Source of the DNA: Clostridiaceae bacterium
GTDB lineage: Bacteria; Bacillota; Clostridia; Saccharofermentanales; DTU023
Assembly (NCBI GenBank): GCA_012838355.1
Contig: DUPJ01000013.1
Location: 1 to 62,753, forward strand
Direction: 5' to 3'
DNA length: 62,753 nt
Both the position numbers and the translations under genes were made by a program. The notes under the pieces were generated by a model. That model saw only the letters and a program-made list of their open reading frames with translations, was not told where the DNA came from and did no database searches. Positions 9,987 through 31,467 of the stretch are shown here, in pieces; the stretch's first letter is position 1; each line of letters begins with the position of its first letter.

Positions 9987-9991
9987 ATGGG

Positions 9992-10549
9992 TCAGGCACG
10001 CTCCATGTACTGTCCGGTGCGTGTATCAATGCGAATAATCTCGCCCTGTTCGATAAAGAGGGGAACTTTTACGACATGTCCCGTTTCCAGCGTCGCATTC
10101 TTGCTCGCATTGTTGGCGGTGTCGCCGCGCACTGCCGGCTCGGTTTCGACGATTTCAAGTTCAACAAAAATCGGCGGTTCAACGTTGATGATGTCGCTCT
10201 TGTAAGACAGGATCTTGCAGACCGTTCCTTCTTTCAGGTACGGCAGCACGCCTTCCAGCATGTCTGTCGTGAACGGCAGCTGCTCGTACGTTTCCGTATC
10301 CATGAAATAGTACAGATCGCCGTCCTGATACAGATAGGACATGTCGCGCCGCTCCAGCTGAGCCTGCTCAAACTTTTCCGACGGGTTGAACGAACGCTCC
10401 ACCACACTGCCAGTCTTGACGTTCCGGTATTTGGTGCGGACGAACGCGGCACCTTTGCCCGGCTTAACATGCTGAAACTCGACCACCTGAAATAATTGCC
10501 CATCCATCTCGAACGTTATTCCATTGCGGAAATCTCCCGCACTGATCAT
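9992..10549 (-). CDS. efp: translation elongation factor P
   Basis: Trimmed to [17 protein letters not shown], with a GGAGG RBS 7 nt upstream. The [12 protein letters not shown] loop is present. Confidence 0.93.
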
Positions 10550-12599: not shown

Positions 12600-14435
12600 T
12601 CACGGCCGTTTCGCGTAATCGATTATGCGACTCGTGTCAAAATAACGGTCAAAGCGCGTGGCCGTCGGATTTCTAAGCGCATCGCCGCCCGCCAGATTCA
12701 TATCCATGTGGGTATAGCCGTCGCCGTAAGCAAAGTAGGCGATGGTCCCGTGTGCAAGCAGCCTTGAGTACCCGAGCTGGACGAGCAGGGACGTTTTTTC
12801 CGAAACGGTATTGACATGGCGTCCGCCCGGATAGGAAAAGGTTCTCAGTTCGCCCAGAAATGGTCCCAGAACCGCCTTGAATAACTGGTCGTCTTCCCGG
12901 ATTGCATCGACCGTGACGTCTGGCAAATTTAAATCGCCATACGTGTTCGATGCAAACTGATAGCCCATGAGACGCAGACGGTCTGCCACCGCTTTTGCAT
13001 CCGTCCGCTCCGCCTCAATCTGTTCATCATTAAGCAAAACCGGGGCCATCCCGTTCATCGCGCGCTGTTCGTTTTTCAAAATGGCCTGCGCCGGATTGAG
13101 GACGTAGCCGAACAAACCGTACTGCCCGGTGACGGCGATCGTTGCTTTCGCACCGTTGAACGAAAAATCCGGATAGTCCCGAATAAACGCTTCCAAAATG
13201 GATACGGCATCACCGTCCTTGATCGGCTGCACCGCCCCGTCATCACCGATCAGGGCACCGGTGACGCCGTCTTCACCGTCCAGAACAAGGCGGTCAATCG
13301 TGCCGGCCAGCGAGCGCGTCGCCGCAAAATGGAAGCTGTCAAAGACGAGCACCAGCGGTTTCTTCCCCTCGGGAATGCTGAAGGCTTTGAATTTTCCGCC
13401 AGCGGTGATAAAGGCGTCGTCCGAGACCAGCACATAGCCGTTGTCGTAGAGCGCTTTCAGCATCGCCTGAAACTCACCTGCCAAAAGCAGAAAACGGTCA
13501 TTCGCCTCGGCATAGCGGTTGCCCGCAAATGCCTTTTCGGCGTCGGCAATCAAGGGTCTTACAGCGATGTGATCGACCGGCAGATCCCATGTCGAAAAGG
13601 ATTTCGGCAGATGAGCGTCGGCTTCCACGTTGAAATTCAGGAGTTCGGCGTCGTACGGAAAAATCGGCAGAATAACATTCAGCAGCTCTCTCGCCGAATA
13701 GTACTTCTGCTGTTCCAGCAGAAACGACACATTGCGAATCGTCTCAGAAAGCAGATTTTCCCGCGCCTCTTCTGCGCGTGCTTCAATATAGCCAAGCGTG
13801 AAATGGGACATGCTGCGGTCATTTTGAAGCTGTTCCCACTTTCTGGTCGCATCAAGCCAGCTGGAAGCCGCCATAAGGGCTTCAGCCTCAGCTATTTTCG
13901 GCCTGGCCGCAATCATGGCGTCATGCTCATTTTCGACACGTCCGTACGTCTGGTAAACGACGTCAATCTGAAGCGTCTCATCAAGCATGTGCCGCATTTC
14001 CTCATCGCTGTAGCTGCCGCTGAGATACTTATAGGTATAAGCAACGAAAGCATCCAGCAGCGCATTGGTGCTGAGAGTGTCAAATATCGTGAAGAAGTCG
14101 CGGTCATCAGCGCTCAAAACGGCACCGTTTGCTATCTTGTCGAAACGTGAAGCCGCTTCCGAGGCGATCGTTTTCTCCACGAGATCCGCCACGGCGTCGG
14201 CCTGAATCTGCCGTTCCGATCCTTCCGGTGCCTGATTTCGCTCTTCCAGAGCTAATTGATACAAGTCGACCACGCCGGCCCGGTCACCGGCGGCATAAGC
14301 CGTTTCGAATGCCGCTTCGGTGACAAGCGGCCGCCAGTAGATTCTGGTGGCGACATAGACGGCCGCGATGCCCGTCAGCAGGATGACGACCAAAAGGATG
14401 ACGAGCGGTCGCCGCAGCCGGTGAATACTATTCAT
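12600..14435 (-). CDS. membrane-anchored extracytoplasmic protein; C-terminal half resembles a polysaccharide deacetylase (NodB-like); function unknown
   Basis: Trimmed to MNSIHRLRRPLVILLVVILLTGIAAV, which has one N-terminal TM helix. The C-terminal region has FSYPGG and HGT stretches that recall the deacetylase fold. The ATG overlaps the stop of the upstream topoisomerase gene by 8 nt. Confidence 0.4.
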   Translation of the reverse strand: MNSIHRLRRPLVILLVVILLTGIAAVYVATRIYWRPLVTEAAFETAYAAGDRAGVVDLYQLALEERNQAPEGSERQIQADAVADLVEKTIASEAASRFDKIANGAVLSADDRDFFTIFDTLSTNALLDAFVAYTYKYLSGSYSDEEMRHMLDETLQIDVVYQTYGRVENEHDAMIAARPKIAEAEALMAASSWLDATRKWEQLQNDRSMSHFTLGYIEARAEEARENLLSETIRNVSFLLEQQKYYSARELLNVILPIFPYDAELLNFNVEADAHLPKSFSTWDLPVDHIAVRPLIADAEKAFAGNRYAEANDRFLLLAGEFQAMLKALYDNGYVLVSDDAFITAGGKFKAFSIPEGKKPLVLVFDSFHFAATRSLAGTIDRLVLDGEDGVTGALIGDDGAVQPIKDGDAVSILEAFIRDYPDFSFNGAKATIAVTGQYGLFGYVLNPAQAILKNEQRAMNGMAPVLLNDEQIEAERTDAKAVADRLRLMGYQFASNTYGDLNLPDVTVDAIREDDQLFKAVLGPFLGELRTFSYPGGRHVNTVSEKTSLLVQLGYSRLLAHGTIAYFAYGDGYTHMDMNLAGGDALRNPTATRFDRYFDTSRIIDYAKRP

Positions 14436-16674
14436 GCTCGTCGTCGAAGGCAAGCTGCCTCGACTCCAGCAACGCATCCTTGACGGGACGGCCGGCCGCC
14501 GGCACCTTCTTCACCCTGAATGATTGTGCTTTCAGCCGTTCGAATGATGCGGCACGTCTCACCAGCTGCACCTCATGACCTTTGCTCAGGCGCATCATTT
14601 GAACGCCCTGTGACGTGCGGGTCACCTTTTCCGGAATCAGGTCGGTCGAGAGGACGGCGAGCTTGCCGTTGGTCGATACAAATGCCAGATCATAAGGTTC
14701 GCTGCCGACAAAGTCGGCGTACGCCAGCGGCGATTTATCGGAATAAGCTGATACCAGTTTGCGGCGGTTGGACTTTGTCTCGTAGCGGTCGAGCGGCACG
14801 CGCAGCGCCTTGCCGTTTTCAAAGCAAAACAGCAGATGCCCCTGATATCGGTCATCCAGAGGCAGCATAAATTCAATCTTTTCGCCTGGATCAAGCTCCA
14901 GCAGATTCGGGGTGTACTCGCCGAACTCAGAGGGCTTGTGGTCAACTACATCGTATAGCGCCAGGCGGTATGCATTCGCCCGGTTGCTGATAAACAGCAC
15001 CTCTGTCTTGTTGGTCGCTTCATATTCCAGGCGAATGCGGTCGCCTTCCTTCAGCTTCAGATCGGCACCGGTGCGCAGCGACGTGAGCGCCAGTTTTTTC
15101 AGATAGCCCTCATCCGTCAAGTAGACACGGACGTTGTAGTCCTCGATCAGATCCTGCTTCGTGAATGTCTTCAGCTCTTCTTTGTCAATCAGAATCGTCT
15201 TGCGCTCGCGTCCGTACTTTTTCGCAATGTCGAGCAGTTCACCCCTGATCTTCCGATCGATTCGCCGCTTGCTTGCCGCCAGCTGGCGGAGCGAATCAAT
15301 CTCCTTTTCCAGATCCGAGATCTCCGACGTGCGCTTCAGCAAAACTTCACGGTTCAGCTGCCTGAGCCGGATCTCAGCCACAAATTCTGCCTGCCGCTCA
15401 TCGATCTGAAATCCCGCCATGAGCCGCGGGACGACTTCCTTTTCGCGTTCGGTTTTGCGGATGATGGCGATGGCCAGATCAATATCAAGCATGATCAGCT
15501 GAAGCCCGTTCAGCAAATGCAGCCGGTCCTCCAGTTCTGCCCTGCGGTGATCCGCCTCACGGCGCACGCACGTGCGCCTCCAGGCGAGCCAGGACTGCAT
15601 GATTTCGCGGACACCGAGCACTTTCGGCGTATCCTCGATCAGCACATTGAAATTCGCCGAAAACCCGCTTTGAAGTGATGTCATCCTGAGCAGTTTTTGC
15701 ATCAGGAGCTCAGGATCAACGCCGCGCTTGTACTCCAGACTGATCGACAGACCATTCAGGTCCGTCTCGTCGCGCACATCGGACAGATCGCGAATTTTGC
15801 CTGACTTGGCCAGCGCCGTGATCTCCTCGATAATCGCTTCAATGGTTGTCGTATACGGAATTTCAGTGACCAGAATGCGCTGCGCTTTCTTGTCGATCGA
15901 AAACACGGCGCGCAGCTGGAATGTGCCGCGCCCCGTTTCATACACGCGGCGCATGTCGTCTTCGTCATAAAGGAGCCGCCCTCCCGTGGAAAAATCAGGC
16001 GCTGGCATCCACTTCAGCAGGTCGGCATCGGCATCATCGATCAGTGCGGCTGTCGCCTCGCAGACTTCCTTCAGGTTGAAGGAACAGATGTTGCTTGCCA
16101 TGCCGACCGCAATCCCCTGATTCGCATTCACAAGTACCGTCGGAAACTGAACGGGAAGCAGGACCGGCTCCTTCATCGTGCCGCTGTAATTGTCGACAAA
16201 ATCGACGCTGTCCCGGTTCAGTCCGGCAAACAGCAGTTCAGCGCTGGCATCGAGGCGCACTTCGGTGTAGCGGGCGGCCGCATACTGCATGTCGCGCGAG
16301 TAGATGCGTCCGAAATTCCCTTTGGAATCGATCCAGGGGTGAATGAGCGCACCGTTGCCGCGCGTCAGTCGCACCAGCGTTTCGTATATCGCCTGGTCGC
16401 CGTGCGGATTCAACGCCATCGTCTGTCCGACCACATCGGCCGATTTGGCGCGCGCTCCGCCGAGCAGCTTCATGCGATACATGGTATAGAGCAATTTGCG
16501 ATGCGACGGCTTGAAGCCGTCAATTTCCGGGATGGCCCGCGAAACGATCACACTCATCGCATACGGCATGTAATTCTCGCGCAGCGTTTCCGTGATGGGC
16601 TGCAGCGTGACCGCCGCAGCCTGCCGTGATTCTGGCGCAGCGATATCAGATTTTTTTCGCTTTTTAGAGGACAT
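14428..16674 (-). CDS. type IIA DNA topoisomerase subunit A (ParC/GyrA-like)
   Basis: Trimmed to MSSKKRKK. It contains YMPYAMSVIVSRAIPEIDGFKPSHRKLLY and the catalytic-Tyr region AARYTE. It follows and overlaps the subunit B gene. Confidence 0.85.
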   Translation of the reverse strand: MSSKKRKKSDIAAPESRQAAAVTLQPITETLRENYMPYAMSVIVSRAIPEIDGFKPSHRKLLYTMYRMKLLGGARAKSADVVGQTMALNPHGDQAIYETLVRLTRGNGALIHPWIDSKGNFGRIYSRDMQYAAARYTEVRLDASAELLFAGLNRDSVDFVDNYSGTMKEPVLLPVQFPTVLVNANQGIAVGMASNICSFNLKEVCEATAALIDDADADLLKWMPAPDFSTGGRLLYDEDDMRRVYETGRGTFQLRAVFSIDKKAQRILVTEIPYTTTIEAIIEEITALAKSGKIRDLSDVRDETDLNGLSISLEYKRGVDPELLMQKLLRMTSLQSGFSANFNVLIEDTPKVLGVREIMQSWLAWRRTCVRREADHRRAELEDRLHLLNGLQLIMLDIDLAIAIIRKTEREKEVVPRLMAGFQIDERQAEFVAEIRLRQLNREVLLKRTSEISDLEKEIDSLRQLAASKRRIDRKIRGELLDIAKKYGRERKTILIDKEELKTFTKQDLIEDYNVRVYLTDEGYLKKLALTSLRTGADLKLKEGDRIRLEYEATNKTEVLFISNRANAYRLALYDVVDHKPSEFGEYTPNLLELDPGEKIEFMLPLDDRYQGHLLFCFENGKALRVPLDRYETKSNRRKLVSAYSDKSPLAYADFVGSEPYDLAFVSTNGKLAVLSTDLIPEKVTRTSQGVQMMRLSKGHEVQLVRRAASFERLKAQSFRVKKVPAAGRPVKDALLESRQLAFDDEHE

Positions 16675-18646
16675 CAAGATCTCCCAGGTAGTCGCGTCCG
16701 TGCAATTCAATATAGCGTTTGCGTCCGGCCAGATCGTCTCCCAGCAGGACATCAAACATGTCTTTCATCGGTCCTTCCGCTTCCGGCATCACCGCAATCA
16801 GGCGTCTCGTTTCCGGATTCATGGTCGTCTGCCACATCATCTCCGGCTCATTTTCCCCGAGCCCCTTGGAGCGCTGCAGCTTTATCCGTCCCTCGCCAAG
16901 CCCTGCCAGAATTTTGGCCTTTTCCGATTCATTGTAGGCAAAATGCGTTTGTTCCAGCTGCCTCGTGGCATGCGTGATTTCATAGAGCGGTGATTCTGCA
17001 ATAAAAACTTTGCCGGCTGCGATCAGGCTCGGCATCAGCCGGTAGAACATGGCAAGAATCAGTGTCCTTATTTGAAAGCCGTCAACATCGGCATCCGTGC
17101 ATATGATGATTTTTCCGAAACGCAAATTGTCGAGTGAAAATCCAGGTATGTCCTTCATGTGCTTGCCGCCGATTTCCACACCGCAGCCCATGATGCGCAC
17201 CAGATCGACGATGATCTGATTTTTGAATATGGCGGCATAGTCCGCCTTAAGACAGTTCAGAATCTTGCCGCGAAGCGGAATGACAGCCTGAAACTCAGCG
17301 TCACGTGCCATTTTTACGGATCCCAGCGCCGAATTGCCCTCAACGATGTAAAGCTCGCGCTGTTCGATGTCCTTGCTGCGGCAATCGACGAAGTTGCCAA
17401 CCCGGTTCGTGAAATCGGTGCTGCCCATCAATTTCTTTTTCAAATTGAGACGCTGCTTCTCTGCACTTTCGCGGCTCCGCTTGTTGATCAGGATCTGGTC
17501 GATAACCTTCAATCCCTCCTGCTGATGCTCAATAAACCAGATTTCAAGCGAGCTTCTTATCAATTCAGTCATGAATTCTTGTATGTATCGATTGCTGATT
17601 GCTTTCTTTGTCTGGTTCGCATAGGAGGTGACTGTCGAAAACGAACTGGAGATCAGAATCAGACTGTCTTCGATATCCTGAAACGTTATTTTGCTCTCGT
17701 TCGCCTTGTATTTTCCCGCTGCTTTGATCCAGCGGTCCACTTCCGACAGAAGGGCGCTGCGCACGGCCCGGTCCGGCGATCCGCCGTGCTCAAGCCAGGA
17801 CGAATTGTGAAAATAGGTGATCTGTGACGTGCGGCCGGAGAAGGCAAACGCGATTTCTGCAAGTACATTGTAGTCATCCTTGTCCTTGCGGTCCCGCCCC
17901 GTTCCCTCTCCCTTGATCAGGAAAGGCTTGGAAAGCCGATTCTCGTCCGACAATTCTGCGACATACCCGAGGACGCCGTCCGGATAGCAAAATGCCTGCT
18001 GCGTGTCGTCCAGCTTGTCGCTGAATTCGAACGTAATGCCGGCATTGACAATGGCCTGCTGCTTCAAGACGCGCTCAAACCATTCTTTTGGGATGGCGAT
18101 TTCCGTGAAGACTTCAAGATCCGGCATAAACCGCTGCGTCGTTCCCGTGCGCCTGCCTTTGAATGGCTCCTGCCGCAGGCCTCCGATATTCTCGCCCTTT
18201 TCGAAATGAAGCGTGTATTTCTGCCCGTCGCGCCAGACGGTGACATCATACCACGCCGATGCATATTGGGTGGCACAGGCACCCAATCCATTTAGACCTA
18301 AACTGTAAGCGTAGTGTCCGCCTTCCGTGTTGTAATATTTGCCGCCGGCATACAGTTCACAGAACACGAGTTCCCAATTAAACCGCTTCTCACGCGGGTT
18401 GTAGTCCAGCGGGATACCGCGGGCTTCGTCTTCGACCTGAATCGAATGGTCTGCAAAGCGCGTGATTTTTATCGTTTTCCCGTAGCCCTCTCTTGCCTCA
18501 TCAATTGAGTTGGAAAGAATTTCAAAAAAGGCTTGAAAGCATCCGGCCAGATCGTCAGAGCCAAATATGACACCGGGACGTTTCCGCACGCGGTCGGCGC
18601 CCTTCAGTGACGTTATGCTTTCGTTGCCGTATAGTTTTTTGGCCAT
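16664..18646 (-). CDS. type IIA DNA topoisomerase subunit B (ParE/GyrB-like)
   Basis: Trimmed to MAKKLYGNESITSLKGADRVRKRPGVIFG, with a GGAGGGG RBS upstream. It has a GHKL ATPase domain, a Toprim EGNSA motif and a TDADVDG motif. Confidence 0.85.
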   Translation of the reverse strand: MAKKLYGNESITSLKGADRVRKRPGVIFGSDDLAGCFQAFFEILSNSIDEAREGYGKTIKITRFADHSIQVEDEARGIPLDYNPREKRFNWELVFCELYAGGKYYNTEGGHYAYSLGLNGLGACATQYASAWYDVTVWRDGQKYTLHFEKGENIGGLRQEPFKGRRTGTTQRFMPDLEVFTEIAIPKEWFERVLKQQAIVNAGITFEFSDKLDDTQQAFCYPDGVLGYVAELSDENRLSKPFLIKGEGTGRDRKDKDDYNVLAEIAFAFSGRTSQITYFHNSSWLEHGGSPDRAVRSALLSEVDRWIKAAGKYKANESKITFQDIEDSLILISSSFSTVTSYANQTKKAISNRYIQEFMTELIRSSLEIWFIEHQQEGLKVIDQILINKRSRESAEKQRLNLKKKLMGSTDFTNRVGNFVDCRSKDIEQRELYIVEGNSALGSVKMARDAEFQAVIPLRGKILNCLKADYAAIFKNQIIVDLVRIMGCGVEIGGKHMKDIPGFSLDNLRFGKIIICTDADVDGFQIRTLILAMFYRLMPSLIAAGKVFIAESPLYEITHATRQLEQTHFAYNESEKAKILAGLGEGRIKLQRSKGLGENEPEMMWQTTMNPETRRLIAVMPEAEGPMKDMFDVLLGDDLAGRKRYIELHGRDYLGDLDVL

Positions 18647-19026: not shown

Positions 19027-20388
19027 CTAGTGTCCCACCATGGCCGCGTAAACATAGCCGATACGCCCGTCTTCGAGACGGATCAGCACCCAGCCGTCGA
19101 CAGGTTCGCTCAGTTTCCAGATCAGGTCGCCGCGCTTGACAGTGCCGAGCAGGCGCCCGCCGCCGCCCTCATGGTAGACCGTGAGCGAATTGACGTCGAC
19201 TTCCCATTCAATCTCATAATCGGTACTGAGCGTCACAACGCTTTCACCGCTTTCGGGCGTTACCACCAGAACCGTGGGAGCCGTCGTGGCCGTCTGCCTT
19301 CGGTTTCGCGCGATGAGCGCACGGCCGCCTGCGGCCACCAAGAGCAATAAGAGCAGCAGAAGGGCAAAAAAGACAATGCGTGACAGCAGTACCTGTCCCG
19401 GGAAAAGATTCATCAGCCGTTTGACGAGACCGCCTCCGTCACGTCCGAACGACGCCATGTCCTTCGTTTTCAAGCGGTCGAGCCGGGTCGTTCCGCGTTC
19501 ACTTTCAGCGAGCGTGCGGCTTCCCGAGGGATACGATCCGTTCTTTGATTCCAGCCTGATTTGAGTCGGCTCCGGCTCGACCAGATGGATCTTGTCTGAC
19601 GGTTTTTGCTTCGGTTCCGGCGGAGCCGCTTTAACGGGGATAAAAATGTTGCCGTTTTCCAGCCGCACAACCTTTGATTTCGGCAGATTGCCCGGAAACT
19701 GACGCTTCGATTTGAGTCCAAGTCCGTCCGTCGACTGATCTTCCTGTGTCCGCTGGATGTGAAAGGCCAGCCAGGGTTTGACCAGACCTTCGCCGTATGT
19801 CTCCGCGAGATCCGAAAGCTTGGCCATGACCGTCGATACTTGGCGCAGGGCTGAAAAGGTTTCGATTAACTCGCCGGCATCGAAGAGATCAACGAATTCG
19901 GGAGCGAGCACAAGCACATTGTCGCCGGCTTCGATATCGAACGAGTACAAGTCGAGACCAAAAAAACGAGGTGCACCTGCCGGCATGTCGATCGGCTGCA
20001 CACGGAACAGGCGGCCGGCCCGGTTCAGGTAGAGGCCGAAACGGGGTGCTGTGTAACAGACAAAGCGCGCCTCATCGATGAGGATCAGAAAATCGGCACG
20101 CAAATGTTCACGCTCTGCGGCTGACGGGAAAACGGCGAGCCCGCCCGTCTGCAGTTCCCGAAAGCAGCTCTCCCAAAGCCGCAGCTGATGCTTATCTTCC
20201 GCAATGGCGTTCGGCCGCTTGCGGTCTGTCATGATGCCGGTGACCATCTGTACACGACGGTTTCCGGTCATCACGTAGTTATGCTGTCTTTGCAACGCCA
20301 AACCGCCCAGGCTGCGATCGTTGATCTGAAAAGTCAACTCCTTCAGCGAAGCGGATGGTATATGAGCAGTTATGGTTGTTCGTATCAT
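19027..20388 (-). CDS. hypothetical bitopic membrane protein with C-terminal SH3-like domain
   Basis: 453-aa ORF. It has an unassigned cytoplasmic N-domain of about 215 aa, a low-complexity linker, one TM helix (IVFFALLLLLLLLVAAGG), and a C-terminus GDLIWKLSEPVDGWVLIRLEDGRIGYVYAAMV that resembles a bacterial SH3 domain. Confidence 0.5.
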   Translation of the reverse strand: MIRTTITAHIPSASLKELTFQINDRSLGGLALQRQHNYVMTGNRRVQMVTGIMTDRKRPNAIAEDKHQLRLWESCFRELQTGGLAVFPSAAEREHLRADFLILIDEARFVCYTAPRFGLYLNRAGRLFRVQPIDMPAGAPRFFGLDLYSFDIEAGDNVLVLAPEFVDLFDAGELIETFSALRQVSTVMAKLSDLAETYGEGLVKPWLAFHIQRTQEDQSTDGLGLKSKRQFPGNLPKSKVVRLENGNIFIPVKAAPPEPKQKPSDKIHLVEPEPTQIRLESKNGSYPSGSRTLAESERGTTRLDRLKTKDMASFGRDGGGLVKRLMNLFPGQVLLSRIVFFALLLLLLLLVAAGGRALIARNRRQTATTAPTVLVVTPESGESVVTLSTDYEIEWEVDVNSLTVYHEGGGGRLLGTVKRGDLIWKLSEPVDGWVLIRLEDGRIGYVYAAMVGH

Positions 20389-22611: not shown

Positions 22612-22698
22612 GTAGTCCTCCCACTAGATGATTCGATGAACAAATTATAACCATAGTATGAAGTACAAGGCAAACCAGCCGGGTCATGATTGCCGCTG

Positions 22699-23436
22699 TT
22701 ATTCAGGGATTTGCATAAGCCGGTCGGCAGATACCTGCAAAGCGGCCTGGCTGAGATGCTGGCGAAAAGGATGAAAGGCAGCGGCAACCGGTTCGGCTCG
22801 CATCTCCATCTGTACTTTTGTTACGGGATGTGTGAAATGCAGACACTCCGCAAACAAGGCAATGGATGGGGTGGCGAGATCCGGCGCGGTGTCCGGGCCG
22901 TAGCGCCGATCGCCGAGCAGCGGGAAATCCCTCGACGCAAACTGCAGCCGGATCTGATGCGACCGTCCGCTGAGAAGCCTGATGTGAGCAAGCGACAAAT
23001 CACGGTCGGGGTCTTTTGCCAGACTGGCAGCAACGAGGTCTGCCGGGCGGCCATGTGCTTCGTCCGTCGTATAATAGCGGCCGTTTTTTGTTTTGGCCGA
23101 GAGAAAGTCTTTCCAGTAAACGGGGCCGTCCGGCAGCGATCCGTGCGTCACAGCCAGATAGTATTTTTGAATATCCTTCTGGCGGAACTGTTCGGACAGC
23201 CGTTTTGCCGCCTTGGACGTTTTCGCGAACAGCATGACGCCGCCGACCGGCATATCAAGCCGGTGGACCAGTCCGAGAAAGACATTGCCGGGCTTTTTGT
23301 CACGTTCCTTGATCATCTGCTGCAGTGTGCTGAGGATGTCCGGCTTGCCGCTGCGATCCGCCTGCGAAAGCATAAATATTGGCTTTACGCAGACAAGAAT
23401 ATGGTTGTCTTCGTACAGAAGCGTTATCGCGTCCAT
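22699..23436 (-). CDS. RluA-family pseudouridine synthase (no S4 domain)
   Basis: 245-aa ORF with the catalytic HRLDMPVGGVMLFAKT motif and a SGRSHQIR motif. Confidence 0.8.
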   Translation of the reverse strand: MDAITLLYEDNHILVCVKPIFMLSQADRSGKPDILSTLQQMIKERDKKPGNVFLGLVHRLDMPVGGVMLFAKTSKAAKRLSEQFRQKDIQKYYLAVTHGSLPDGPVYWKDFLSAKTKNGRYYTTDEAHGRPADLVAASLAKDPDRDLSLAHIRLLSGRSHQIRLQFASRDFPLLGDRRYGPDTAPDLATPSIALFAECLHFTHPVTKVQMEMRAEPVAAAFHPFRQHLSQAALQVSADRLMQIPE

Positions 23437-24299
23437 CGTGTCGTCAATCCAAGGCTGAGCGGGATCCCGCGCAGCGTGCCGTGCAAGCCGAGTTCATCCG
23501 TCTCGTACGTGCCGCCATGCTGTGCCAGCGCGAGTTTCAGGCATGTCTCCGCATTGCCTGGTGTCAGCCCGCTGTACGTATTCAGCAGCACAAACGCGGG
23601 ACCGGCATCCGGCAGCAGCTGACTTAATTGGGAAAGCAGCAAAAAGAGATGCTCTTCGAGCCGCCACATCTCGCCGCCCGGTCCGCGTCCATACGTGGGC
23701 GGGTCCAGCACAATACCGTCATAGCGTCGTCCCCGCCGGATTTCACGCTTCACAAACTTTTCGGCGTCGTCGGCCAGAAATCGCACGGTGACGTCGTCGA
23801 GTCTGCTCAGCTTCAGGTTGTCCCTGGCCTTGCCCAGCATGCCTTTGGCCGCATCGACGTGCACGATTTCCGCCGGATGTGCAGCGGCCATCGCGAGTGT
23901 TGCACCGCCTGTGTAGGCAAACAGATTCAAGAGACGCGGTGATTTGCCGCTTTCCTTCAGGCGCATCACCTCGGCGCAGAGATAGTCCCAGTTCGCGGCC
24001 TGCTCGGGAAAAACGCCCGTATGCTTGAAGCCCATGCTGGAAAGCGAGAAGACCAGTTTCGGGCCATTTTTCAAGCCGTAGGCGATGCGCCATTTATCGG
24101 GAAGCGGCCGCCGCAGCGTCCATTTGCCTCCGCCGGTGCCGGAGCGCGTGTAGAACGCGTCCGTTTCCGGCCATGGTTCATGGGGCCAGAATGCTGCCGG
24201 TTCCGGCCTGACAACGGTCGTCTTTCCCCAGCGTTCGAGTTTTTCGCCGTTACCCGAATCTATCAATTCGTAATCCTGCCAGTTGTCACTGATGAACAA
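23424..24299 (-). CDS. class I SAM-dependent (rRNA-type) methyltransferase
   Basis: 291-aa ORF with LNLFAYTGGATLAMA (SAM motif I) and a VLDPPTYGRGP motif typical of RlmI/RlmK-like enzymes. Confidence 0.75.
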   Translation of the reverse strand: MFISDNWQDYELIDSGNGEKLERWGKTTVVRPEPAAFWPHEPWPETDAFYTRSGTGGGKWTLRRPLPDKWRIAYGLKNGPKLVFSLSSMGFKHTGVFPEQAANWDYLCAEVMRLKESGKSPRLLNLFAYTGGATLAMAAAHPAEIVHVDAAKGMLGKARDNLKLSRLDDVTVRFLADDAEKFVKREIRRGRRYDGIVLDPPTYGRGPGGEMWRLEEHLFLLLSQLSQLLPDAGPAFVLLNTYSGLTPGNAETCLKLALAQHGGTYETDELGLHGTLRGIPLSLGLTTRWTR

Positions 24300-25082: not shown

Positions 25083-26899
25083 GATCATCGCTCCTCTTCC
25101 GCCGCGTCTTTACGCTTCTCGCCGCCGCCCTGATTCTCTGGATTGTTCTGACGGCCATTTTGTATGCCTTTATTGCCCGCCCTGTTTTCACGGATATGAA
25201 GGCGCGGGAAATCGAGCCGCTGGCGCATATTCTGGCTGATCGCGCCGGTCTGACCGACGACTCCCTTGACAACTTTGTGCACGAAACGGTGGGCTACGCC
25301 AACGAGATGTTCGGCAACTGGATGTTTGTCATCAGCCGCAATACACCTTTTATATTTCATACGCCGCTTCCGGACAGCATGACGTCGATCCGCCAGGAAA
25401 TCGTCTCCACCGTTTCCGATGCAGATCGTCAGCTTGCAAAAGCGGATTCGGTCGTTTTTACGAAATCATTCAAGGGACAAAGCAGCGCGTTTTTGTTCGT
25501 CGTGGTCCCGATTGGCGCGCCTCTGGACGGCCCGGGATCGCTCGCCATTGTACAGCCGATGTCGGAGATCAACGCCGGCATTCTGAGCCTCAATCTGGCA
25601 CTGCTGACATCATCGCTGGCGATCCTCCTCATCATGATCGTACCGATCATGCTCGCAACCATGCGCATCCTGAAACCGCTCCACTCGGTGCGCCGCGTGG
25701 CCATGGCCATGAGTGCCGGCGACTTCTCGCAGCGGGCGGATGAATCGGCCAGCGGCGAATTCCATGATCTGGCCGTGGCTGTCAATCACTTGGCCGGCGA
25801 ACTGTCCAGTCTGATTGCACAGCTCACATTCGAGCGAAATCGGCTGCGCCAGATACTGAACAGTATTGCGGAAGGCATTATCGCCGTTAACAAGGAAGGC
25901 CTCGTGACCGAGTGCAATTTGAAAGTCTGGGATGTGTTTGGCGTCACGACCGATATGTCGCGTCCGCTTTCACCCGACGTATTCTTGCAGACGACAAAAC
26001 TGAATGAATTCTTCCACGATGCCATGACGATGAAACAGGACGTCGCCCATGTCATCAGCAAGGATCACCGTCAGATCTACTGCCTGATCACCCCCCTGAT
26101 CAATGAACGGGGCACACATGATGGAGCGGTCGGACTGTTTCGGGACATCACGGAAAGTGAACGACTGGAACAGACGCGCCGCGACTATATTGCCAACGTT
26201 TCGCACGAACTGAGGACGCCGCTCACGGCCATGCGCGCATTGCTCGAGCCGCTGGCCGAAGACATGGTGCGCAAGGAAGACGACAAAAAGCGCTATTACG
26301 CCATCCTGCTGCGGGAAACGATGCGTCTTTCCCGACTGATCAACGACATGCTTGAATTGTCCAGATTGCAGGCCACAGACGACAGTGCCGAACTATGCAT
26401 CGTCCAGCTGGAGCCAATCATCTCGAATGTGCTGCAGCGTTTTCAGCCAGTCGCAGAAGAACACGATGTCAGCCTGAGCGCTCCCGGTTCCATGTCCGAC
26501 TGCCCGAACGTCTGGAGCGATCCCGACTGGCTTGAACAGATTATTGCCATCTTTGTCGACAACGCGATCAAGTTCACGCCCAAAGGAGGCGACATCACGC
26601 TTGGCATCAAAGCGGATTCGGATACGGCAGCGATCAGCGTGCGCGACAGCGGCGTCGGCATAGCACCGGAAGATATCGATCATGTGTTTGACCGTTTTTT
26701 CAAGGCCGACCGTGCTCACAATGAACCGGGCACCGGTCTCGGTCTGTCCATCGCCAGTGAAATTGCGCGACAGATTCACGCAACGCTGTCTGTCAAGAGC
26801 GAACCGGGCGAAGGTTCCATCTTTACCGTCCATGTCCGGACTGCCGATGCGGCCATCAAGGATATGCCGGTCACGATTGACGCAGAGGAGTCCCCATGA
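25079..26899 (+). CDS. sensor histidine kinase (2 TM, HAMP, PAS-like, HisKA, HATPase_c)
   Basis: 606-aa ORF with the H-box SHELRTPLTAM, an N-box VDNAIKFTP, and G-boxes DSGVGI and GTGLGLSI. It overlaps the response regulator stop (GTGA). Confidence 0.9.
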   Translation: MRSSLLFRRVFTLLAAALILWIVLTAILYAFIARPVFTDMKAREIEPLAHILADRAGLTDDSLDNFVHETVGYANEMFGNWMFVISRNTPFIFHTPLPDSMTSIRQEIVSTVSDADRQLAKADSVVFTKSFKGQSSAFLFVVVPIGAPLDGPGSLAIVQPMSEINAGILSLNLALLTSSLAILLIMIVPIMLATMRILKPLHSVRRVAMAMSAGDFSQRADESASGEFHDLAVAVNHLAGELSSLIAQLTFERNRLRQILNSIAEGIIAVNKEGLVTECNLKVWDVFGVTTDMSRPLSPDVFLQTTKLNEFFHDAMTMKQDVAHVISKDHRQIYCLITPLINERGTHDGAVGLFRDITESERLEQTRRDYIANVSHELRTPLTAMRALLEPLAEDMVRKEDDKKRYYAILLRETMRLSRLINDMLELSRLQATDDSAELCIVQLEPIISNVLQRFQPVAEEHDVSLSAPGSMSDCPNVWSDPDWLEQIIAIFVDNAIKFTPKGGDITLGIKADSDTAAISVRDSGVGIAPEDIDHVFDRFFKADRAHNEPGTGLGLSIASEIARQIHATLSVKSEPGEGSIFTVHVRTADAAIKDMPVTIDAEESP

Positions 26900-27636
26900 G
26901 AATCAACCAGTACATCGCAAAAAGCGGTTATTGCAGCCGCCGTGAGGCCGACCGGCTGCTTGCGGACGGGAACGTCACGCTGAATGACAGGCCGGCTTCT
27001 GTCGGCGCGGACGTTAAGGCTGGTGATGTGGTCAAAATTAACGGCAGGCGAATCACGCCGAAAACGAAAGGCGAACTGGTATATCTCGCGTTCCACAAAC
27101 CGGTCGGCGTCACCACCACGACAGATCTGCGACGGCGGGACAACATTATTGCCTTCATCAACTACCCCGAACGCATCTTTCCTGTCGGCAGACTCGATCG
27201 TGACTCGGAGGGGCTGATCCTCCTCACCAACGACGGTGATATCGTGAATCGCATTTTGCGCGCGGAGTACGGTCATGAAAAGGAATATGAAGTTACGGTC
27301 GACAGGCCGCCGACCAGCGCCATGCTGGCCGAAATGGAAAGCGGCATCATGCTTGACGGACGGATGACACTGCCGGTAAAAATAAAAATGACCGGAAACC
27401 GGTCATTTCGAATCGTTCTTCGTCAGGGGCTAAATCGCCAGATCCGCCGCATGTGCGAAGCGGTAGGGCTTCAAGTGACGAAATTGCAGCGGCTTCGCAT
27501 TATGCATGTCACGCTCGGAAATCTGAAACCCGGCACGTATCGCCTGCTCACACCGAAAGAAATGAGGGACATGCGACTTCTCCTCGAACAGGCAGAAGCG
27601 GAGGCTAATCCGCGGCCGCCTCGAACACCTTCTTAA
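26896..27636 (+). CDS. rluF: 23S rRNA pseudouridine synthase, RluF-like (S4 + RsuA-type catalytic domain)
   Basis: 246-aa ORF with MRINQYIAKSGYCSRREADRLL (S4 domain), the catalytic GRLDRDSEGLILLTNDGD motif, and GLNRQIRRMCE. Its ATG overlaps the kinase stop (ATGA). Confidence 0.85.
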   Translation: MRINQYIAKSGYCSRREADRLLADGNVTLNDRPASVGADVKAGDVVKINGRRITPKTKGELVYLAFHKPVGVTTTTDLRRRDNIIAFINYPERIFPVGRLDRDSEGLILLTNDGDIVNRILRAEYGHEKEYEVTVDRPPTSAMLAEMESGIMLDGRMTLPVKIKMTGNRSFRIVLRQGLNRQIRRMCEAVGLQVTKLQRLRIMHVTLGNLKPGTYRLLTPKEMRDMRLLLEQAEAEANPRPPRTPS

Positions 27637-27883
27637 TCTTTTTGTAGGACGGTCTGCCTTCAAATATCTTTTTCCCGCCGACAAAGAATGAGGGCACGAA
27701 ATAATAATTGTGTGCGTTCGCGATCGCCGTCTCGTTCAGTTCATTGACTTCGCGAATCGGTATGTCCTTATATTCCGGATGGCGGACAAATAGCTCCGCC
27801 ATCAGCTGACGTGCACGCAAGCAGTGCGGGCACTGCGGCAGGTGGAAAAATAAAATCTGCCTGTCATCTGCTTTTTCGTTCAT
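27605..27883 (-). CDS. thioredoxin-fold / glutaredoxin-like protein with a CPHC active site
   Basis: 92-aa ORF with FFHLPQCPHC..VPSFFVGGKKI, which looks like a glutaredoxin-type fold. No signal peptide. It starts 3 nt after the stop of the upstream small ORF. Confidence 0.65.
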   Translation of the reverse strand: MNEKADDRQILFFHLPQCPHCLRARQLMAELFVRHPEYKDIPIREVNELNETAIANAHNYYFVPSFFVGGKKIFEGRPSYKKIKKVFEAAAD

Positions 27884-27886
27884 GCA

Positions 27887-28087
27887 TTATCCTGCTTTCC
27901 TGTATCGCGCGCTGAGCGGCTTTACGTTGGTCGCCTGCGGAAGCGGTACCGGTTCAGTAACGTCCAGCAGATCCTGCCACTCAACATAACGCTTCGCTTC
28001 AAGCTTTTCAAAATGGCGCATCATCCCGTAACCGGTGAGACCTGTGCCGGCCAGAACGAGAAAAAGGAGTGCATTGATCAACGGCAT
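27887..28087 (-). CDS. 66-aa single-pass membrane protein, unknown function
   Basis: N-terminal TM helix (LINALLFLVLAGTGLTGYGMM) followed by a basic stretch. A GAGGA RBS lies 7 nt upstream. It is the first gene behind the LexA-box promoter. Confidence 0.5.
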   Translation of the reverse strand: MPLINALLFLVLAGTGLTGYGMMRHFEKLEAKRYVEWQDLLDVTEPVPLPQATNVKPLSARYRKAG

Positions 28088-28119
28088 ATCGGTATCCTCG
28101 CGAACTTTTTGTTGTTCCG

Positions 28120-28168
28120 AGTATAACCGAACAATTGTTCGCAGTCAATCAATGCGAACAATTGTTTC
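28120..28168 (-). promoter_or_regulatory. near-consensus sigma-70 promoter with two LexA (Cheo/SOS) boxes
   Basis: On the minus strand: TTGACT (28148..28143), a 17-nt spacer, then TATACT (28125..28120). A perfect palindrome CGAACAATTGTTCG (28128..28141) fills the spacer. A second box, GAAACAATTGTTCG (28155..28168), lies just upstream of the -35 element. Both fit the Firmicute LexA consensus CGAAC-N4-GTTCG. Confidence 0.7.
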
Positions 28169-28681
28169 CTAAACGTGATCCGCGTCGTAATCCAGCGTCA
28201 GCGTTGAAAGACCGGTCGTCAGCGCTTCATAGGCAACGCCGGCGGCATCAAACATACGCTTGGACGCAATCACCGGATCTGTGTCTTTGTATTTGTCGGA
28301 AAGATAGTAGACGTGCCGGATGCCGCTTTGAATGATCGCTTTGCTGCACTCATTGCAGGGAAACAGCGGCACGTATATTTTGCAGCCTTCCAGATTGAAA
28401 CCGGAGCTGTTCAGGATGGCGTTCAATTCGGCATGCGTGACATACGGGTACTTGGTTTCAAGGTAGCGGCCTTCTCTTGCCCACGGAAACAGATCGTCGT
28501 CGCAGCCGCGCGGAAATCCGTTGTAGCCGATGCTTACGATTTTGTTCTGGTCATTCACGATACAGGCGCCAACCTGCGTGTTCGGATCCTTGCTGCGCCT
28601 TGCGGCGAGCAATGCGATTCCCATGAAATATTCATCCCAGGAAATATAGTCCTCGCGCTTGCTCATTTTCAGTCCTTTCAA
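28169..28681 (-). CDS. comEB: deoxycytidylate (dCMP) deaminase
   Basis: 170-aa ORF with the zinc motifs HAELNAI and PCNECSKAI. The start may be the ATG at 28666 (MSKREDY). Confidence 0.88.
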   Translation of the reverse strand: MKGLKMSKREDYISWDEYFMGIALLAARRSKDPNTQVGACIVNDQNKIVSIGYNGFPRGCDDDLFPWAREGRYLETKYPYVTHAELNAILNSSGFNLEGCKIYVPLFPCNECSKAIIQSGIRHVYYLSDKYKDTDPVIASKRMFDAAGVAYEALTTGLSTLTLDYDADHV

Positions 28682-31467
28682 TCTTCCGATTCTTCGATGT
28701 AGACGGGCAGCTTGCCGGGAGCGATCGCATCATTTGCATACGCGCCGCTATCCAGTGAATCAGCTAAACCATCTGCCGCCCGCTTCTTTGCGAGTTTTTG
28801 TGCTTTCCGTCTGCCGAGTACAGGGCAAAAAAGCCGCAAGGCAACGAGCAGCAGAGCAAATACCAGAAAACTGGCAAGCGTGACCAGAAGGCCGGTCGTG
28901 AAGCCGTCCGGTTTGAAGCGCATGACAATCTCGTGCTGACCGGCCGATACGGGGATGGCCATCATGCTCTTGTCTACTTCGGTGATCTCAACCGCACTGC
29001 CGTCCACAGATATCGTCCAGCCGGGATCGAACGGTATGGCGATGAAGAGCATGCCGTCTTTTGCGGCATCGACCGTACCTTCAATATGCGTGGAACGATG
29101 CGACCGTACATACATGGCGTCCTGCCACAGCAGGCCGACTGTGCGTTCCAGATCGGGCACGGACAGCTGACTGACATACAGCTCGAATTCACCGCTGCTG
29201 GCCGCATCGCTTTCCAATACGATATGGACGGTAACACTCGCATTTGCCGGCACATAACCGAGGTCGATCACACCGCTGCGTCGAACCGGTGCCGTAAATC
29301 GATTGTTGTCAATCAAAATGTCGGCATGCCGGCCCTTGTGACCGCGCAAATCAACACCGAGATACGTATTGGCACCGTTCGACGTATCCCAGCTGATTGA
29401 GAAGGTCGCTTCCTGGTCGGGCAGATCCTTGCCGAAATGGTAGACGCCCGGCGTCTCTGTCGGGCCCAGTACGCCGCCGACATGCTGGCCCAGGTCGATA
29501 CTGACCGGCGTCAGCACACGCCAGGCTTCCGTATTGGGCAGCATGGCCTCGAGCAGACTGGTCTGATTTTCAAACGGACTGCGATCGTGCGAGGTGAAGC
29601 TCAGTACGGCCGGATCGACCATATAGGCCAGCGGCAGCGCGTGGCGGTTCTCGTAGACGTAGACGCCGCCGTCATCATTTTTCAAGGTCAGTGTTCTCGC
29701 CTGCTCTGAGATTTTCGGCTGTTCTCGGTAAATCAGGTAGCGGATGCCGAGAAGGCTGTCCATCAGAATCGTTTGACCATCGTACTTATAGCTGTTGATG
29801 GCATTGCTGGAATACCCCATGTTTTTAAAGAAGGTGACGCCATCCTTGCGCATCGTTGAGGCAAATATGGTCGAGCCGTAAAAACCGTACAGGAACGGAT
29901 CATTTGATGTTTTGTCAGGTACAATTTCCGTTCGATAAAAAGCATCATCCGATGATTCTTGCAGCATGTCGGACGCCTTCCTGATCGCCTCGGCTGTCGT
30001 CCCGTATGCATAACCTTCACGCAGGCCGAAGTACTCGTTCTTGTCGAGATAGTGGAGCGATCCGCCCGTGTGCAGGACCATCTCGAAAAAGATGACCGAA
30101 AGCAGCACGAATGCAATCGGCTGGCGGCGCTGCCTGGCAAGCTTGAAGCGCGACAGGACAATCGTATAGACGATGAGGAAGAAAATCGTTGCATATACGG
30201 TGAACGTGGTAAATTTGAGCGTCGTTTCAGGCGCTGCCAGCAGCACCAGAATAATTGCGAGCATGCCGGTATAGCCAAGTTCACGATTGCCGAATGTCTT
30301 TACAGAAGGCAGCGCGTCATACAGGATAAAAATCAGAAGAAAAATATAGACGAACGAATTCCGGTACGGCAGCTGATTCGGAAAGTGCGTGCCATGCCAG
30401 AGAAAATTGAGGATGTTCGTATTAAAGCTGAGAATCAGGAATGCGAGCATGCCCAGGTTTGAAACACGCCGCCAGAGCGGAATGCGGGCTGAAAAGAAGT
30501 AAACGGGTACGAGCAGGAGGAGCAGGATGCCGCCGTACAGATTCGGCATGCCGTCACGCACGGTCGGTTCGAGAAGCATGACGTGCTGGGCAAAATAATC
30601 GATCAGATCAAACGTCGATTCGACTGTTTTCGGGAAGCTGTCGCCGGCCGCGGACGTCAGCTGGAGCGCCTTGTACGTTGGCCAGACCAGGACCGCGCTC
30701 ATGCCGATGCCAAGCAATGTCAGGCCGAGTGTCTTGAGCGACGTCAGCAGGCGTGCCGGCACGCCCTTCTCCGATCCGAACGTGAACAGCACGACCGGGT
30801 AATAGAAGAACGTAAATATCAGCACGAACATGGCCATGTAGTAATTGACGAACAGAAGGTAGCCCACGCTGATCGGATACAGCCAGTAGTTTTTCTCCCG
30901 CACGAGCAGGATCAGGCCAAGAATGACGAGCGGCATGGTGTAGAGGGCATCGAGCCACATGACATTCCAGCCGTAAGCCATTTGATAGCTTGACAGGGCG
31001 TACATTGTGGCAAACGCGATGGACAGCGGTCCGGTGCGAAGATACGCACGCCGCAGGAGCAGATTGAACGCGTATCCTGCCAGCGACACCTTAATCAGGG
31101 TCAGCATGAGAATGCCTTCAGCCAAAAAGGCCTTCGGGAAAATCAGGAGAATTAGATTCAGAGGACTGGCCAGATAATAGGCAAACAGAGAATAAAAATT
31201 GACACCCGTGCCGCCGCGAAATGAATAAAAGAGGCTGTCGCCGCTCAAGAGCTTATCGCGCAGTTCATTCAGGAACGGCGCGTACTGGTGATACAGGTCA
31301 ACCGTGAGAATGTGGCGGTCGCCGAACGGGAACACAAGCCGCGTCGCATAGCCGATCGCCAGAATGATGAATGGCAGCAAAAACGCGAGATATCCGTACG
31401 ACTGATTACTTCCGGGTGCCCGCATCATCCCGTCCTTTGTCCACCTGCTGATTTTCATAAGCCCCAC
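28678..31467 (-). CDS. YfhO-family polytopic membrane protein (putative glycosyltransferase)
   Basis: 929-aa ORF with many N-terminal TM helices, a large extracytoplasmic domain and a C-terminal TM helix. The start LAFLLPFIILAIGY..FPFGDRHILTVDLYHQYAPF is typical of YfhO. Confidence 0.75.
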   Translation of the reverse strand: MGLMKISRWTKDGMMRAPGSNQSYGYLAFLLPFIILAIGYATRLVFPFGDRHILTVDLYHQYAPFLNELRDKLLSGDSLFYSFRGGTGVNFYSLFAYYLASPLNLILLIFPKAFLAEGILMLTLIKVSLAGYAFNLLLRRAYLRTGPLSIAFATMYALSSYQMAYGWNVMWLDALYTMPLVILGLILLVREKNYWLYPISVGYLLFVNYYMAMFVLIFTFFYYPVVLFTFGSEKGVPARLLTSLKTLGLTLLGIGMSAVLVWPTYKALQLTSAAGDSFPKTVESTFDLIDYFAQHVMLLEPTVRDGMPNLYGGILLLLLVPVYFFSARIPLWRRVSNLGMLAFLILSFNTNILNFLWHGTHFPNQLPYRNSFVYIFLLIFILYDALPSVKTFGNRELGYTGMLAIILVLLAAPETTLKFTTFTVYATIFFLIVYTIVLSRFKLARQRRQPIAFVLLSVIFFEMVLHTGGSLHYLDKNEYFGLREGYAYGTTAEAIRKASDMLQESSDDAFYRTEIVPDKTSNDPFLYGFYGSTIFASTMRKDGVTFFKNMGYSSNAINSYKYDGQTILMDSLLGIRYLIYREQPKISEQARTLTLKNDDGGVYVYENRHALPLAYMVDPAVLSFTSHDRSPFENQTSLLEAMLPNTEAWRVLTPVSIDLGQHVGGVLGPTETPGVYHFGKDLPDQEATFSISWDTSNGANTYLGVDLRGHKGRHADILIDNNRFTAPVRRSGVIDLGYVPANASVTVHIVLESDAASSGEFELYVSQLSVPDLERTVGLLWQDAMYVRSHRSTHIEGTVDAAKDGMLFIAIPFDPGWTISVDGSAVEITEVDKSMMAIPVSAGQHEIVMRFKPDGFTTGLLVTLASFLVFALLLVALRLFCPVLGRRKAQKLAKKRAADGLADSLDSGAYANDAIAPGKLPVYIEESED

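Follow-up and report, generated by a model that had tools for sequence, protein, structure and literature searches.

SOS-induced single-pass membrane proteins of Gram-positive bacteria, where tested, inhibit cell division (PMC6851548). Four such systems provide the closest comparison for the locus described here, namely YneA of Bacillus subtilis and Listeria, SosA of Staphylococcus aureus, ChiZ of Mycobacterium tuberculosis and DivS of Corynebacterium glutamicum. We analyzed a two-gene operon on contig DUPJ01000013.1 of the Clostridiaceae assembly GCA_012838355.1. It is very probably controlled by LexA, and it encodes a 66-residue single-pass membrane protein followed by a 92-residue thioredoxin-fold protein with a CPHC motif (hereafter the redoxin). 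The window is the whole 62.7-kb contig (62,753 nucleotides), and all coordinates refer to it. The operon lies on the minus strand, which was read from 27000 to 28700.

The operon shares with these four systems a LexA-box promoter, with multiple operators as at lexA and yneA. It also shares a small one-helix protein that has a conserved membrane-proximal segment and is poorly conserved in sequence outside a narrow clade. However, no homology to any of the four was detectable, no LysM domain was present, and an exhaustive profile search returned orthologues only. Whereas genes of the YneA/SosA class are divergent from lexA, this operon lies between a deoxycytidine monophosphate (dCMP) deaminase gene and an RluF-like pseudouridine synthase gene in all loci. 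The membrane protein has a tail that is predicted to face the cytoplasm and not the outside, and its gene is coupled to a thioredoxin-like gene, for which we found no precedent in the class. The locus cannot be filed with YneA, SosA, ChiZ and DivS, though it may work like them.

SidA and DidA of Caulobacter, and TisB and DinQ of Escherichia coli, resemble the membrane protein in their damage induction and lack of an extracytoplasmic domain (both predicted here), the tiny single helix and the restriction to one lineage. The present locus differs from them in showing no homology, in a charged and probably cytoplasmic tail of about 43 residues, in having no evident antisense RNA control and in its redoxin partner. 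On the regulatory side, the canonical LexA (DinR) Cheo boxes of Firmicutes at lexA, recA and uvrB have the same half-sites, the same spacing and the same placement between the -35 and -10 hexamers; only the cargo differs. The redoxin shares the fold of about 90 residues and the cis-Pro loop with MJ0307 (structure 1FO5), small archaeal-type thioredoxins and glutaredoxin-like proteins, and, as in MJ0307, helix 1 starts at its CPHC motif. Unlike the MJ0307 family, it is predicted to be SOS-controlled, is paired with a membrane peptide and scores far below the family's equivalog cutoff.

Literature searches found no SOS small membrane effector coupled to a redoxin. This agrees with the initial annotation of the window, made from the DNA letters alone, which had not recognized such a partner from SOS division-inhibitor loci. 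The only link to a thiol system came from one Clostridioides difficile ribotype, in which a strain-specific box lies 216 nt upstream of trxB (PMC4234289). The cargo pair is new: an unannotated family of membrane peptides that is always coupled to a CPHC thioredoxin-like protein.

Promoter and operators of the operon

The promoter that had been proposed, TTGACT-17 nt-TATACT, can be read directly at 28148-28120. In a promoter scan it was the best promoter-like site of the region, matching the consensus at 10 of 12 positions, and the other sites were weak. The perfect palindrome reported within the spacer is also present (operator O2, Table 1). This 14-mer is unique in the window, as expected from the earlier visual scan, which had found no other full match. 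The combined design TTGAC-N3-GAAC-N4-GTTC-N3-TATAMT matched the window once when two mismatches were allowed, and matched 0 of 100 shuffles.

The second box that had been claimed upstream of the -35 hexamer (operator O1) was found at its place, but the fit to CGAAC-N4-GTTCG did not hold, as there are two mismatches to that consensus. The leader site, operator O3, is likewise two positions off. On the opposite strand O1 reads GAAC-N4-GTTT, a clostridial form of the LexA box. Altogether, 44 sites in the window come within two mismatches of CGAAC-N4-GTTCG, and the intergenic ones among them are O1 and O2 only.

Outside the operon, the window holds one other exact GAAC-N4-GTTC, GAACACGAGTTC at 18362-18373, within the parE coding region. 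parEC is a LexA target in B. subtilis. We rejected this site as a further LexA target, because it lies inside parE and about one such match is expected by chance. The recN gene in the window has no intergenic promoter region and no box. Besides the homologous sites, the related loci showed no additional box in a region that was clearly intergenic.

Conservation of the operators in related genomes

The comparison set consisted of nine related contigs from Fastidiosipila-like Clostridia, which stand for about seven lineages; the metagenome contig L091 belongs to the same species as the window. Synteny of the small open reading frame (ORF) and its box, which the initial annotation had suggested checking, was clear, with the same gene order in nine related contigs. 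All related contigs (L001-L010 and L091) share the order YfhO, dCMP deaminase, boxed promoter, small ORF and redoxin. Farther downstream, where the contigs reach, there follow the convergent RluF-like pseudouridine synthase, a histidine kinase and a response regulator.

Homologues of either protein were very rare. A word-indexed search gave two to three clusters for each protein and a profile search gave six. An exhaustive hidden Markov model search of 1.84 billion representatives with the small-protein profile also yielded six clusters, two of them new and more distant. With the redoxin as query, the sole match among 185,579 species genomes was a metagenome-assembled genome of Fastidiosipila sp., class Clostridia. 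The membrane-peptide family amounts to about eight sequence clusters among 15 billion proteins. As far as these collections reach, the two-gene operon is restricted to a narrow, uncultured Fastidiosipila-like clade of Clostridia from gut and digester.

In the intergenic alignment, the invariant positions were TTGAC, TATACT, the O2 arms GAAC and GTTCG, the GTTC of the leader site, the AGG of the ribosome-binding site and the ATG. The central tetranucleotide of O2, in contrast to its arms, occurred in eight versions across the loci (AATT, AAAT, ATAT, ATTG, ATGT, ACAT, GTAT and GGTT), and the O2 centre was fixed at 9.5 nt before the start of the -10 hexamer in every locus. Invariant arms around eight different centres indicate the operator footprint of a dimeric repressor.

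Two or three boxes were held at fixed positions across the loci. An O1-type site, AAAC-N4-GTTCG, was found in eight of the nine other related loci, including L091, with its centre 36.5-38.5 nt before the start of the -10 hexamer; it was absent only in L001. A canonical O3, (A/G)AAC-N4-GTTC(G/T), was present in six loci (L002, L003, L005, L006, L008 and L010), starting 27-29 nt before the ATG. In the remaining sequences its spacing was broken by a deletion of 3-5 nt in an A-run, which left N8 in the window, N9 in L091 and L004, and N7 in L001.

This alignment changes the view of the leader element, which the initial annotation had taken for a third site with non-canonical spacing. By itself, GAAC-N8-GTTC occurs at chance level in the window (2 observed against 1.2 expected). 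We rejected it as a variant operator, because close relatives with almost the same sequence differ in its spacing (N7 to N9) and because other loci have a canonical box at the aligned position. The alignment to a canonical box in six loci identifies it as a decayed third operator. Reconstructed in this way, the ancestral state is three boxes, of which the window has two and L001 one. With the promoter otherwise unchanged, the locus shows clearly how operators are gained and lost in nature.

One further contig requires a comment. L007 positions 1-971 (ENA ERZ925727, k127_32701) are a chimera, in which unrelated fragments are joined by back-to-back Nextera adapters (CTGTCTCTTATACACATCT and AGATGTGTATAAGAGACAG). 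The adapter joints lie at about 103-139, 283-300, 462-497 and 776-812, and the protein P0009 called there ends in the adapter-derived CLLYTSRCV.

Probable identity of the sites as LexA boxes

The initial annotation had proposed an operon of two genes with a strong promoter that carries operators of the LexA type. Besides the footprint across about seven lineages, this proposal is supported by the occurrence of the same design before lexA itself. We scanned metagenome contigs for the same promoter-operator design, which gave at least 120 loci, and ran the first ORF behind each against Pfam. Among the matches listed, which comprised 114 ORFs, 30 (26%) were Peptidase_S24/LexA proteins, 25 of them also with the LexA DNA-binding domain. 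Three others were RecA and seven were LysM proteins resembling YneA. A DinB-like start could also be seen by eye among the first ORFs in the matches listed. That a quarter of the matches are lexA is an enormous enrichment and marks the design as a bona fide SOS design.

Published regulons are in line with this assignment. GAACnnnnGTT(T/C) served to define the C. difficile regulon, and GAAC....GTTT occurs at its lexA, recA and ruvC (PMC4234289). O1 fits the clostridial LexA consensus GAACnnnnGTTT from the same study, and both O1 and O3 have the GAAC....GTTT form on the opposite strand; AAAC-N4-GTTC is the commonest clostridial variant (PMC4234289). DNA affinity purification sequencing with the LexA of Clostridium thermocellum returned the B. 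subtilis motif, with three sites common to lexA and a divergent YneA-like gene, and the motif is conserved across Bacilli and Clostridia (PMC8457756). It is also described as well defined across Firmicutes in general (PMC3998124), and in the same study LexA from B. subtilis bound to heterologous sites from metagenomes.

The locus combines an operator match, a placement that would occlude the promoter, conserved arms with a free centre, and a site that stands at SOS genes in metagenomes. Judged by these features, LexA binding at the sites, and with it LexA control of the operon, is very probable. In its predicted regulation the operon does not stand out from the rest of the Firmicutes LexA regulon and is a textbook SOS unit. 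We had considered the lexA locus L117 as belonging to this lineage by tetranucleotide similarity. This assignment was rejected, because the correlation (r=0.81) was no better than that of the unrelated loci L116 (0.81) and L128 and L126 (0.80).

The scan also brought up families of other kinds behind the LexA-box design. A soluble protein of about 66 residues recurred directly behind the same design at about 13 metagenome loci (L029, L037, L038, L042, L047, L049, L057, L060, L076, L086, L088, L099 and L127), always with a GTGAAC-N4-GTTCAC box. Its pattern is MS..QYLK..E.EI..LN..ID.KIL.G..Y..EAR.HK, and it looks like an uncharacterized SOS-regulated family. An 81-residue family starting MNIGMLWFDNDNKSDL was found at L017, L079, L081, L089, L118 and L122, and a family with CEHR.V..DGRIVC.KI at L032, L040, L053, L078, L090, L109, L113 and L125. 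DUF6504 stood behind the design at two loci.

The small membrane protein

The small single-pass membrane protein postulated earlier proved to be conserved, as judged by substitution rates, hydropathy, profile search and AlphaFold2. In the ungapped first 38 codons, the window and L001 differed far more at synonymous than at non-synonymous positions (pS 0.38 against pN 0.046), which points to purifying selection; for distant pairs the values were 0.5-0.7 against 0.23-0.28. The reading frame stayed open in all members despite several in-frame indels, with lengths of 61-71 residues. The excess of synonymous changes and the open frame identify the 66-residue ORF as a real gene. The protein had no match in Pfam and NCBIfam (both E below 0.01), PHROG or PADLOC, and NCBI labels one orthologue "hypothetical protein". 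The peptide contains no cysteine.

Residues 1-23 form a hydrophobic stretch with a mean Kyte-Doolittle hydropathy of 1.7-2.4, and the pattern (M)PL(I/V)N(A/G)L..L.L...GL.GY is found in all members. No Lys or Arg precedes the helix in any of the seven lineages, while three or four are present in the next 15 residues. By the positive-inside rule, this charge distribution makes it likely that the tail of about 43 residues is cytoplasmic. AlphaFold2 predicted one helix from residue 3 to 43 (predicted local distance difference test, pLDDT, of about 88 over the first 20 residues), followed by disorder. Next to the membrane there is a conserved motif, RHFEKxExKxYxEW, of which FEKxE...Y(L/V)EW is degenerate in the most distant members (P0010 and P0011). 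After this motif come a variable tail and a basic C-terminus whose last residues are (K/R)AG. L008 has its C-terminal GRAG apart from the Shine-Dalgarno sequence AGAAAGCAGGA that lies downstream, which indicates that the C-terminus is conserved in its own right. The basic ending (K/R)(K/R)AG may resemble the MuA-type ClpX degron (RRKKAI class), which is documented in reviews; we take the resemblance as a lead only.

The CPHC redoxin

The second gene had been described as encoding a cytoplasmic thioredoxin-fold protein with a CPHC motif, and Pfam, structure 1FO5, AlphaFold2 and Foldseek all agreed. The protein scored 26.1 bits with Pfam Glutaredoxin (cutoff 22.9) and 23.1 bits with Thioredoxin_3. 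All NCBIfam equivalogs remained far below their cutoffs, including TIGR00411 for the MJ0307 family (18.4 against 92.75). With the Glutaredoxin cutoff passed and the equivalog cutoffs missed, the redoxin is a member of the superfamily and not an equivalog. The best solved relative was the MJ0307 thioredoxin (1FO5, E 1.9e-5), in which the alignment shows the same CPHC. The AlphaFold2 model (pLDDT 84) has a minimal thioredoxin fold with the order beta-alpha-beta-alpha-beta-beta-alpha, and Foldseek matched it to thioredoxins with a probability of 1.00 and TM values of 0.6-0.7.

C18, P19, C21 and the cis-Pro P64 were invariant among the redoxin homologues. The active-site His was not strictly invariant, because a 96%-identical variant (P0003, from a 651-bp ENA contig) has CPRC in place of CPHC; this is a single short contig, and the CPRC could be a sequencing error. 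Neither a signal peptide nor a hydrophobic segment was found in the redoxin, which suggests that it is cytoplasmic. The Fastidiosipila orthologue is named "thioredoxin" by NCBI (HHT44956.1).

We also considered a phage or defence origin of the locus. In the phage library the redoxin matched only phrog_22, a thioredoxin family filed under nucleotide metabolism, and this match was weak and generic. Neither protein had a PADLOC match, and the only resemblance in viral contigs was a CxxC match of 20 residues. On these findings we rejected such an origin.

Coupling of the two genes and proposed mode of action

The redoxin gene lay directly downstream of the small ORF in every locus whose sequence reaches there. 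The distance from the stop of the small ORF to the redoxin ATG was 3 nt in the window and L010 and 17 nt in L008, and the two genes overlapped by 20 nt in L002, L003, L005 and L006. Such tight spacing and overlap suggest coupled translation and probably a joint function. We regard joint action of the small protein and the redoxin as somewhat favoured.

In an undamaged cell, LexA dimers on O2 in the promoter spacer would block RNA polymerase. LexA would also occupy the weaker O1 upstream of the -35 hexamer, and in the relatives the leader site O3. Between the upstream yfhO-dCMP-deaminase unit and the operon there is no terminator, and none fits the 81-nt gap after the deaminase gene. Bound LexA should for this reason probably also halt read-through from that unit. 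Upon DNA damage, self-cleavage of LexA stimulated by RecA would free the near-consensus sigma-A promoter, and an mRNA with a short leader would give the two proteins by coupled translation. The peptide would insert by its N-terminal helix and leave its basic tail of about 43 residues in the cytoplasm, where the soluble CPHC redoxin would also be located. On the cytoplasmic side of the membrane, the pair might then work together as an effector induced by damage, the most likely effect being a delay of division or growth, with the redoxin either recruited by the peptide tail or controlling it.

This combination of a LexA-repressed operon, a joint membrane effector pair and a likely delay of division or growth is our best overall explanation, and we offer it as a tentative one. 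The functional part, that the peptide pair arrests division or growth after damage, is possible but more doubtful. It is an argument by analogy, made because the LexA-controlled single-pass proteins that have been tested inhibit division, and because the multi-operator design resembles that of lexA and yneA. Triple operators also occur at lexA/yneA in B. subtilis and C. thermocellum (PMC8457756).

Several points weigh against this explanation. The 62.7-kb contig has no Peptidase_S24 gene and no recA or uvr promoter from which the motif could be calibrated. The operators are decaying in the sub-clade of the window, with O3 broken here and O1 lost in L001. Nothing links the redoxin physically to the peptide, which has no cysteine to offer. 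The division-inhibitor role that the initial annotation had put forward as a plausible SOS checkpoint keeps its plausibility by analogy, but several features of the class do not extend to this gene: it does not adjoin lexA, it has no LysM domain, and its tail is predicted to be cytoplasmic (class features, PMC6851548). Moreover, YneA-like LysM genes divergent from lexA are common in Clostridia (PMC8457756), so that the lineage may already have a division inhibitor.

A more specific version of the joint-effector idea may be sketched. The membrane-anchored, cytoplasm-facing peptide would recruit an oxidizing CPHC oxidoreductase, which would act as a redox switch on a protein of the divisome or of envelope synthesis. 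We consider this improbable; if true, the checkpoint for DNA damage would be redox-based and would differ from the mechanism of YneA/SosA, which is extracellular. Elsewhere in the window, an FtsW/RodA/SpoVE-family protein with an N-terminal FHA domain is encoded at 60907-62685 (-), and a penicillin-binding transpeptidase gene follows immediately at 59504-60910 (-). Should the SOS peptide act on the divisome, these two proteins would be obvious candidates for its target.

Alternative explanations

The alternative that survives best keeps the LexA regulation and makes the redoxin the effector. The CPHC protein would donate electrons to ribonucleotide reductase for the supply of deoxynucleoside triphosphates (dNTPs), or act as a reductant that rescues oxidized proteins, and the peptide would tether or tune it. 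The redoxin is indeed the better conserved of the two, with 63-65% identity against 42-48% for the small protein over the same lineages. It has an intact CxxC and cis-Pro loop in a thioredoxin fold, it is closest to small archaeal-type thioredoxins such as MJ0307, and its only phage-library match is filed under nucleotide metabolism. The operon also directly follows the gene for dCMP deaminase, an enzyme of the deoxythymidine triphosphate pathway, in every locus. However, this adjacency may be historical only, as the operon has its own separate promoter. CPHC is an oxidizing motif of the DsbA/MJ0307 type, and CVQC is the motif of NrdH. Unlike NrdH, the redoxin lacks CVQC. The NCBIfam matches included no NrdH model, no NrdH or glutaredoxin equivalog was reached, with scores far below the cutoffs, and no nrd gene is present on the contig. 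In addition, a redoxin-only function leaves the constant, translationally coupled membrane peptide upstream without explanation. We regard this alternative as rather unlikely.

Considerably less probable is an SOS membrane toxin like TisB or DinQ, in which the peptide would depolarize or perturb the membrane, leading to dormancy or persistence after heavy DNA damage, and the redoxin would protect from it or neutralize it. SOS-controlled membrane toxins are described for E. coli in one source (PMC11575346). The peptide resembles them in its probable LexA control, its very small size, its single helix and its restriction to one lineage, and multiple operators imply the tight repression expected for a harmful product. 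Yet the loss of operators in the sub-clade of the window argues against an extremely toxic product. The greater part of the conserved sequence lies in the charged, probably cytoplasmic tail and not in the helix, and there was no match in PADLOC or to a toxin family. Nor did we see an antisense or small RNA partner or a long structured leader: the leader measures about 26 nt, and the other promoter-like sites are weak.

A third possibility is that the palindromes are bound by another dimeric regulator, or are a conserved feature of the promoter spacer, and that the operon lies outside the SOS response. It could appeal to the contig having no lexA gene or canonical SOS promoter for calibration, and to O1 and O3 each being two positions off CGAAC-N4-GTTCG. 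Nevertheless, the arms are exact Firmicutes LexA half-sites that stay invariant while the centre drifts, and O1 and O3 have the form AAAC-N4-GTTC, which is the most frequent variant in clostridia. With lexA behind the same design in 26% of the metagenome cases among the matches listed, and the motif conserved in Bacilli and Clostridia, including C. thermocellum (PMC8457756) and C. difficile (PMC4234289), this possibility appears very unlikely.

Finally, the 66-codon ORF might be no functional protein but an upstream ORF whose translation controls the redoxin, as its tight coupling to or overlap with the redoxin start codon and the double use of some conserved C-terminal codons as the redoxin ribosome-binding site would allow, but this is hardly credible given the strong purifying selection on the amino acids of the first 38 codons, the orthologues found by the peptide profile at E 1e-8 to 1e-34, the C-terminus conserved apart from the Shine-Dalgarno sequence in L008, and the hydrophobic helix in all lineages.

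Gene neighbourhood and feature coordinates

The features of the operon and its immediate neighbours are collected in Table 1. The 3' ends of the redoxin gene and of the convergent RluF-like gene overlap by 32 bp (27605-27636), with no terminator between the two genes. On the minus strand, the closest hairpin resembling a terminator lies within the RluF-like synthase gene, at 27409-27385.

Table 1. Coordinates of the operon, its regulatory elements and the adjoining genes in the window
Feature	Coordinates	Strand	Remarks
RluF-like pseudouridine synthase gene	26896-27636	+	convergent with the redoxin gene
92-aa thioredoxin-fold protein (redoxin)	27605..27883	-	CPHC, residues 18-21, at 27821-27832
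66-aa single-pass membrane protein ORF	27887..28087	-	ATG at 28087
Shine-Dalgarno GAGGA	28095..28099	-	7 nt before the small-ORF ATG; AGG invariant in all loci
Operator O3 remnant, GGAAC-N8-GTTCG	28101..28118	-	in the leader; only the right half-site GTTCG still in register
-10 hexamer TATACT	28120..28125	-	invariant in nine loci; 17-nt spacer (18 nt in L003)
Operator O2, perfect palindrome CGAACAATTGTTCG	28128..28141	-	fills the promoter spacer (14 of 17 nt)
-35 hexamer TTGACT	28143..28148	-	read in the sequence; TTGAC invariant in nine aligned loci
Operator O1, GAAACAATTGTTCG	28155..28168	-	upstream of the -35 hexamer, six bases away; directly after the deaminase stop
dCMP-deaminase gene	28169-28681	-	ends TAG, stop codon 28169-28171; directly upstream of O1

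The contig carries the core genes recN, xseA, parEC, rpoD, dnaG, topA, dprA and polA. Several sizeable ORFs had no Pfam domain at E <1e-4, namely those at 12600-14477 (-), 19027-20388 (-), 9800-10495 (+) and 22690-23622 (+). The last of these overlaps an opposite-strand methyltransferase gene at 23424-24299 and may not be real.

Implications

The narrow and uncultured clade in which the operon occurs limits its immediate impact. If the pair acts as a checkpoint, it would show that division in Clostridia can be stopped from the cytoplasmic side and in a redox-linked way. Should the pair instead be a helper in dNTP supply or redox balance, the SOS regulon would be extended into thiol metabolism.

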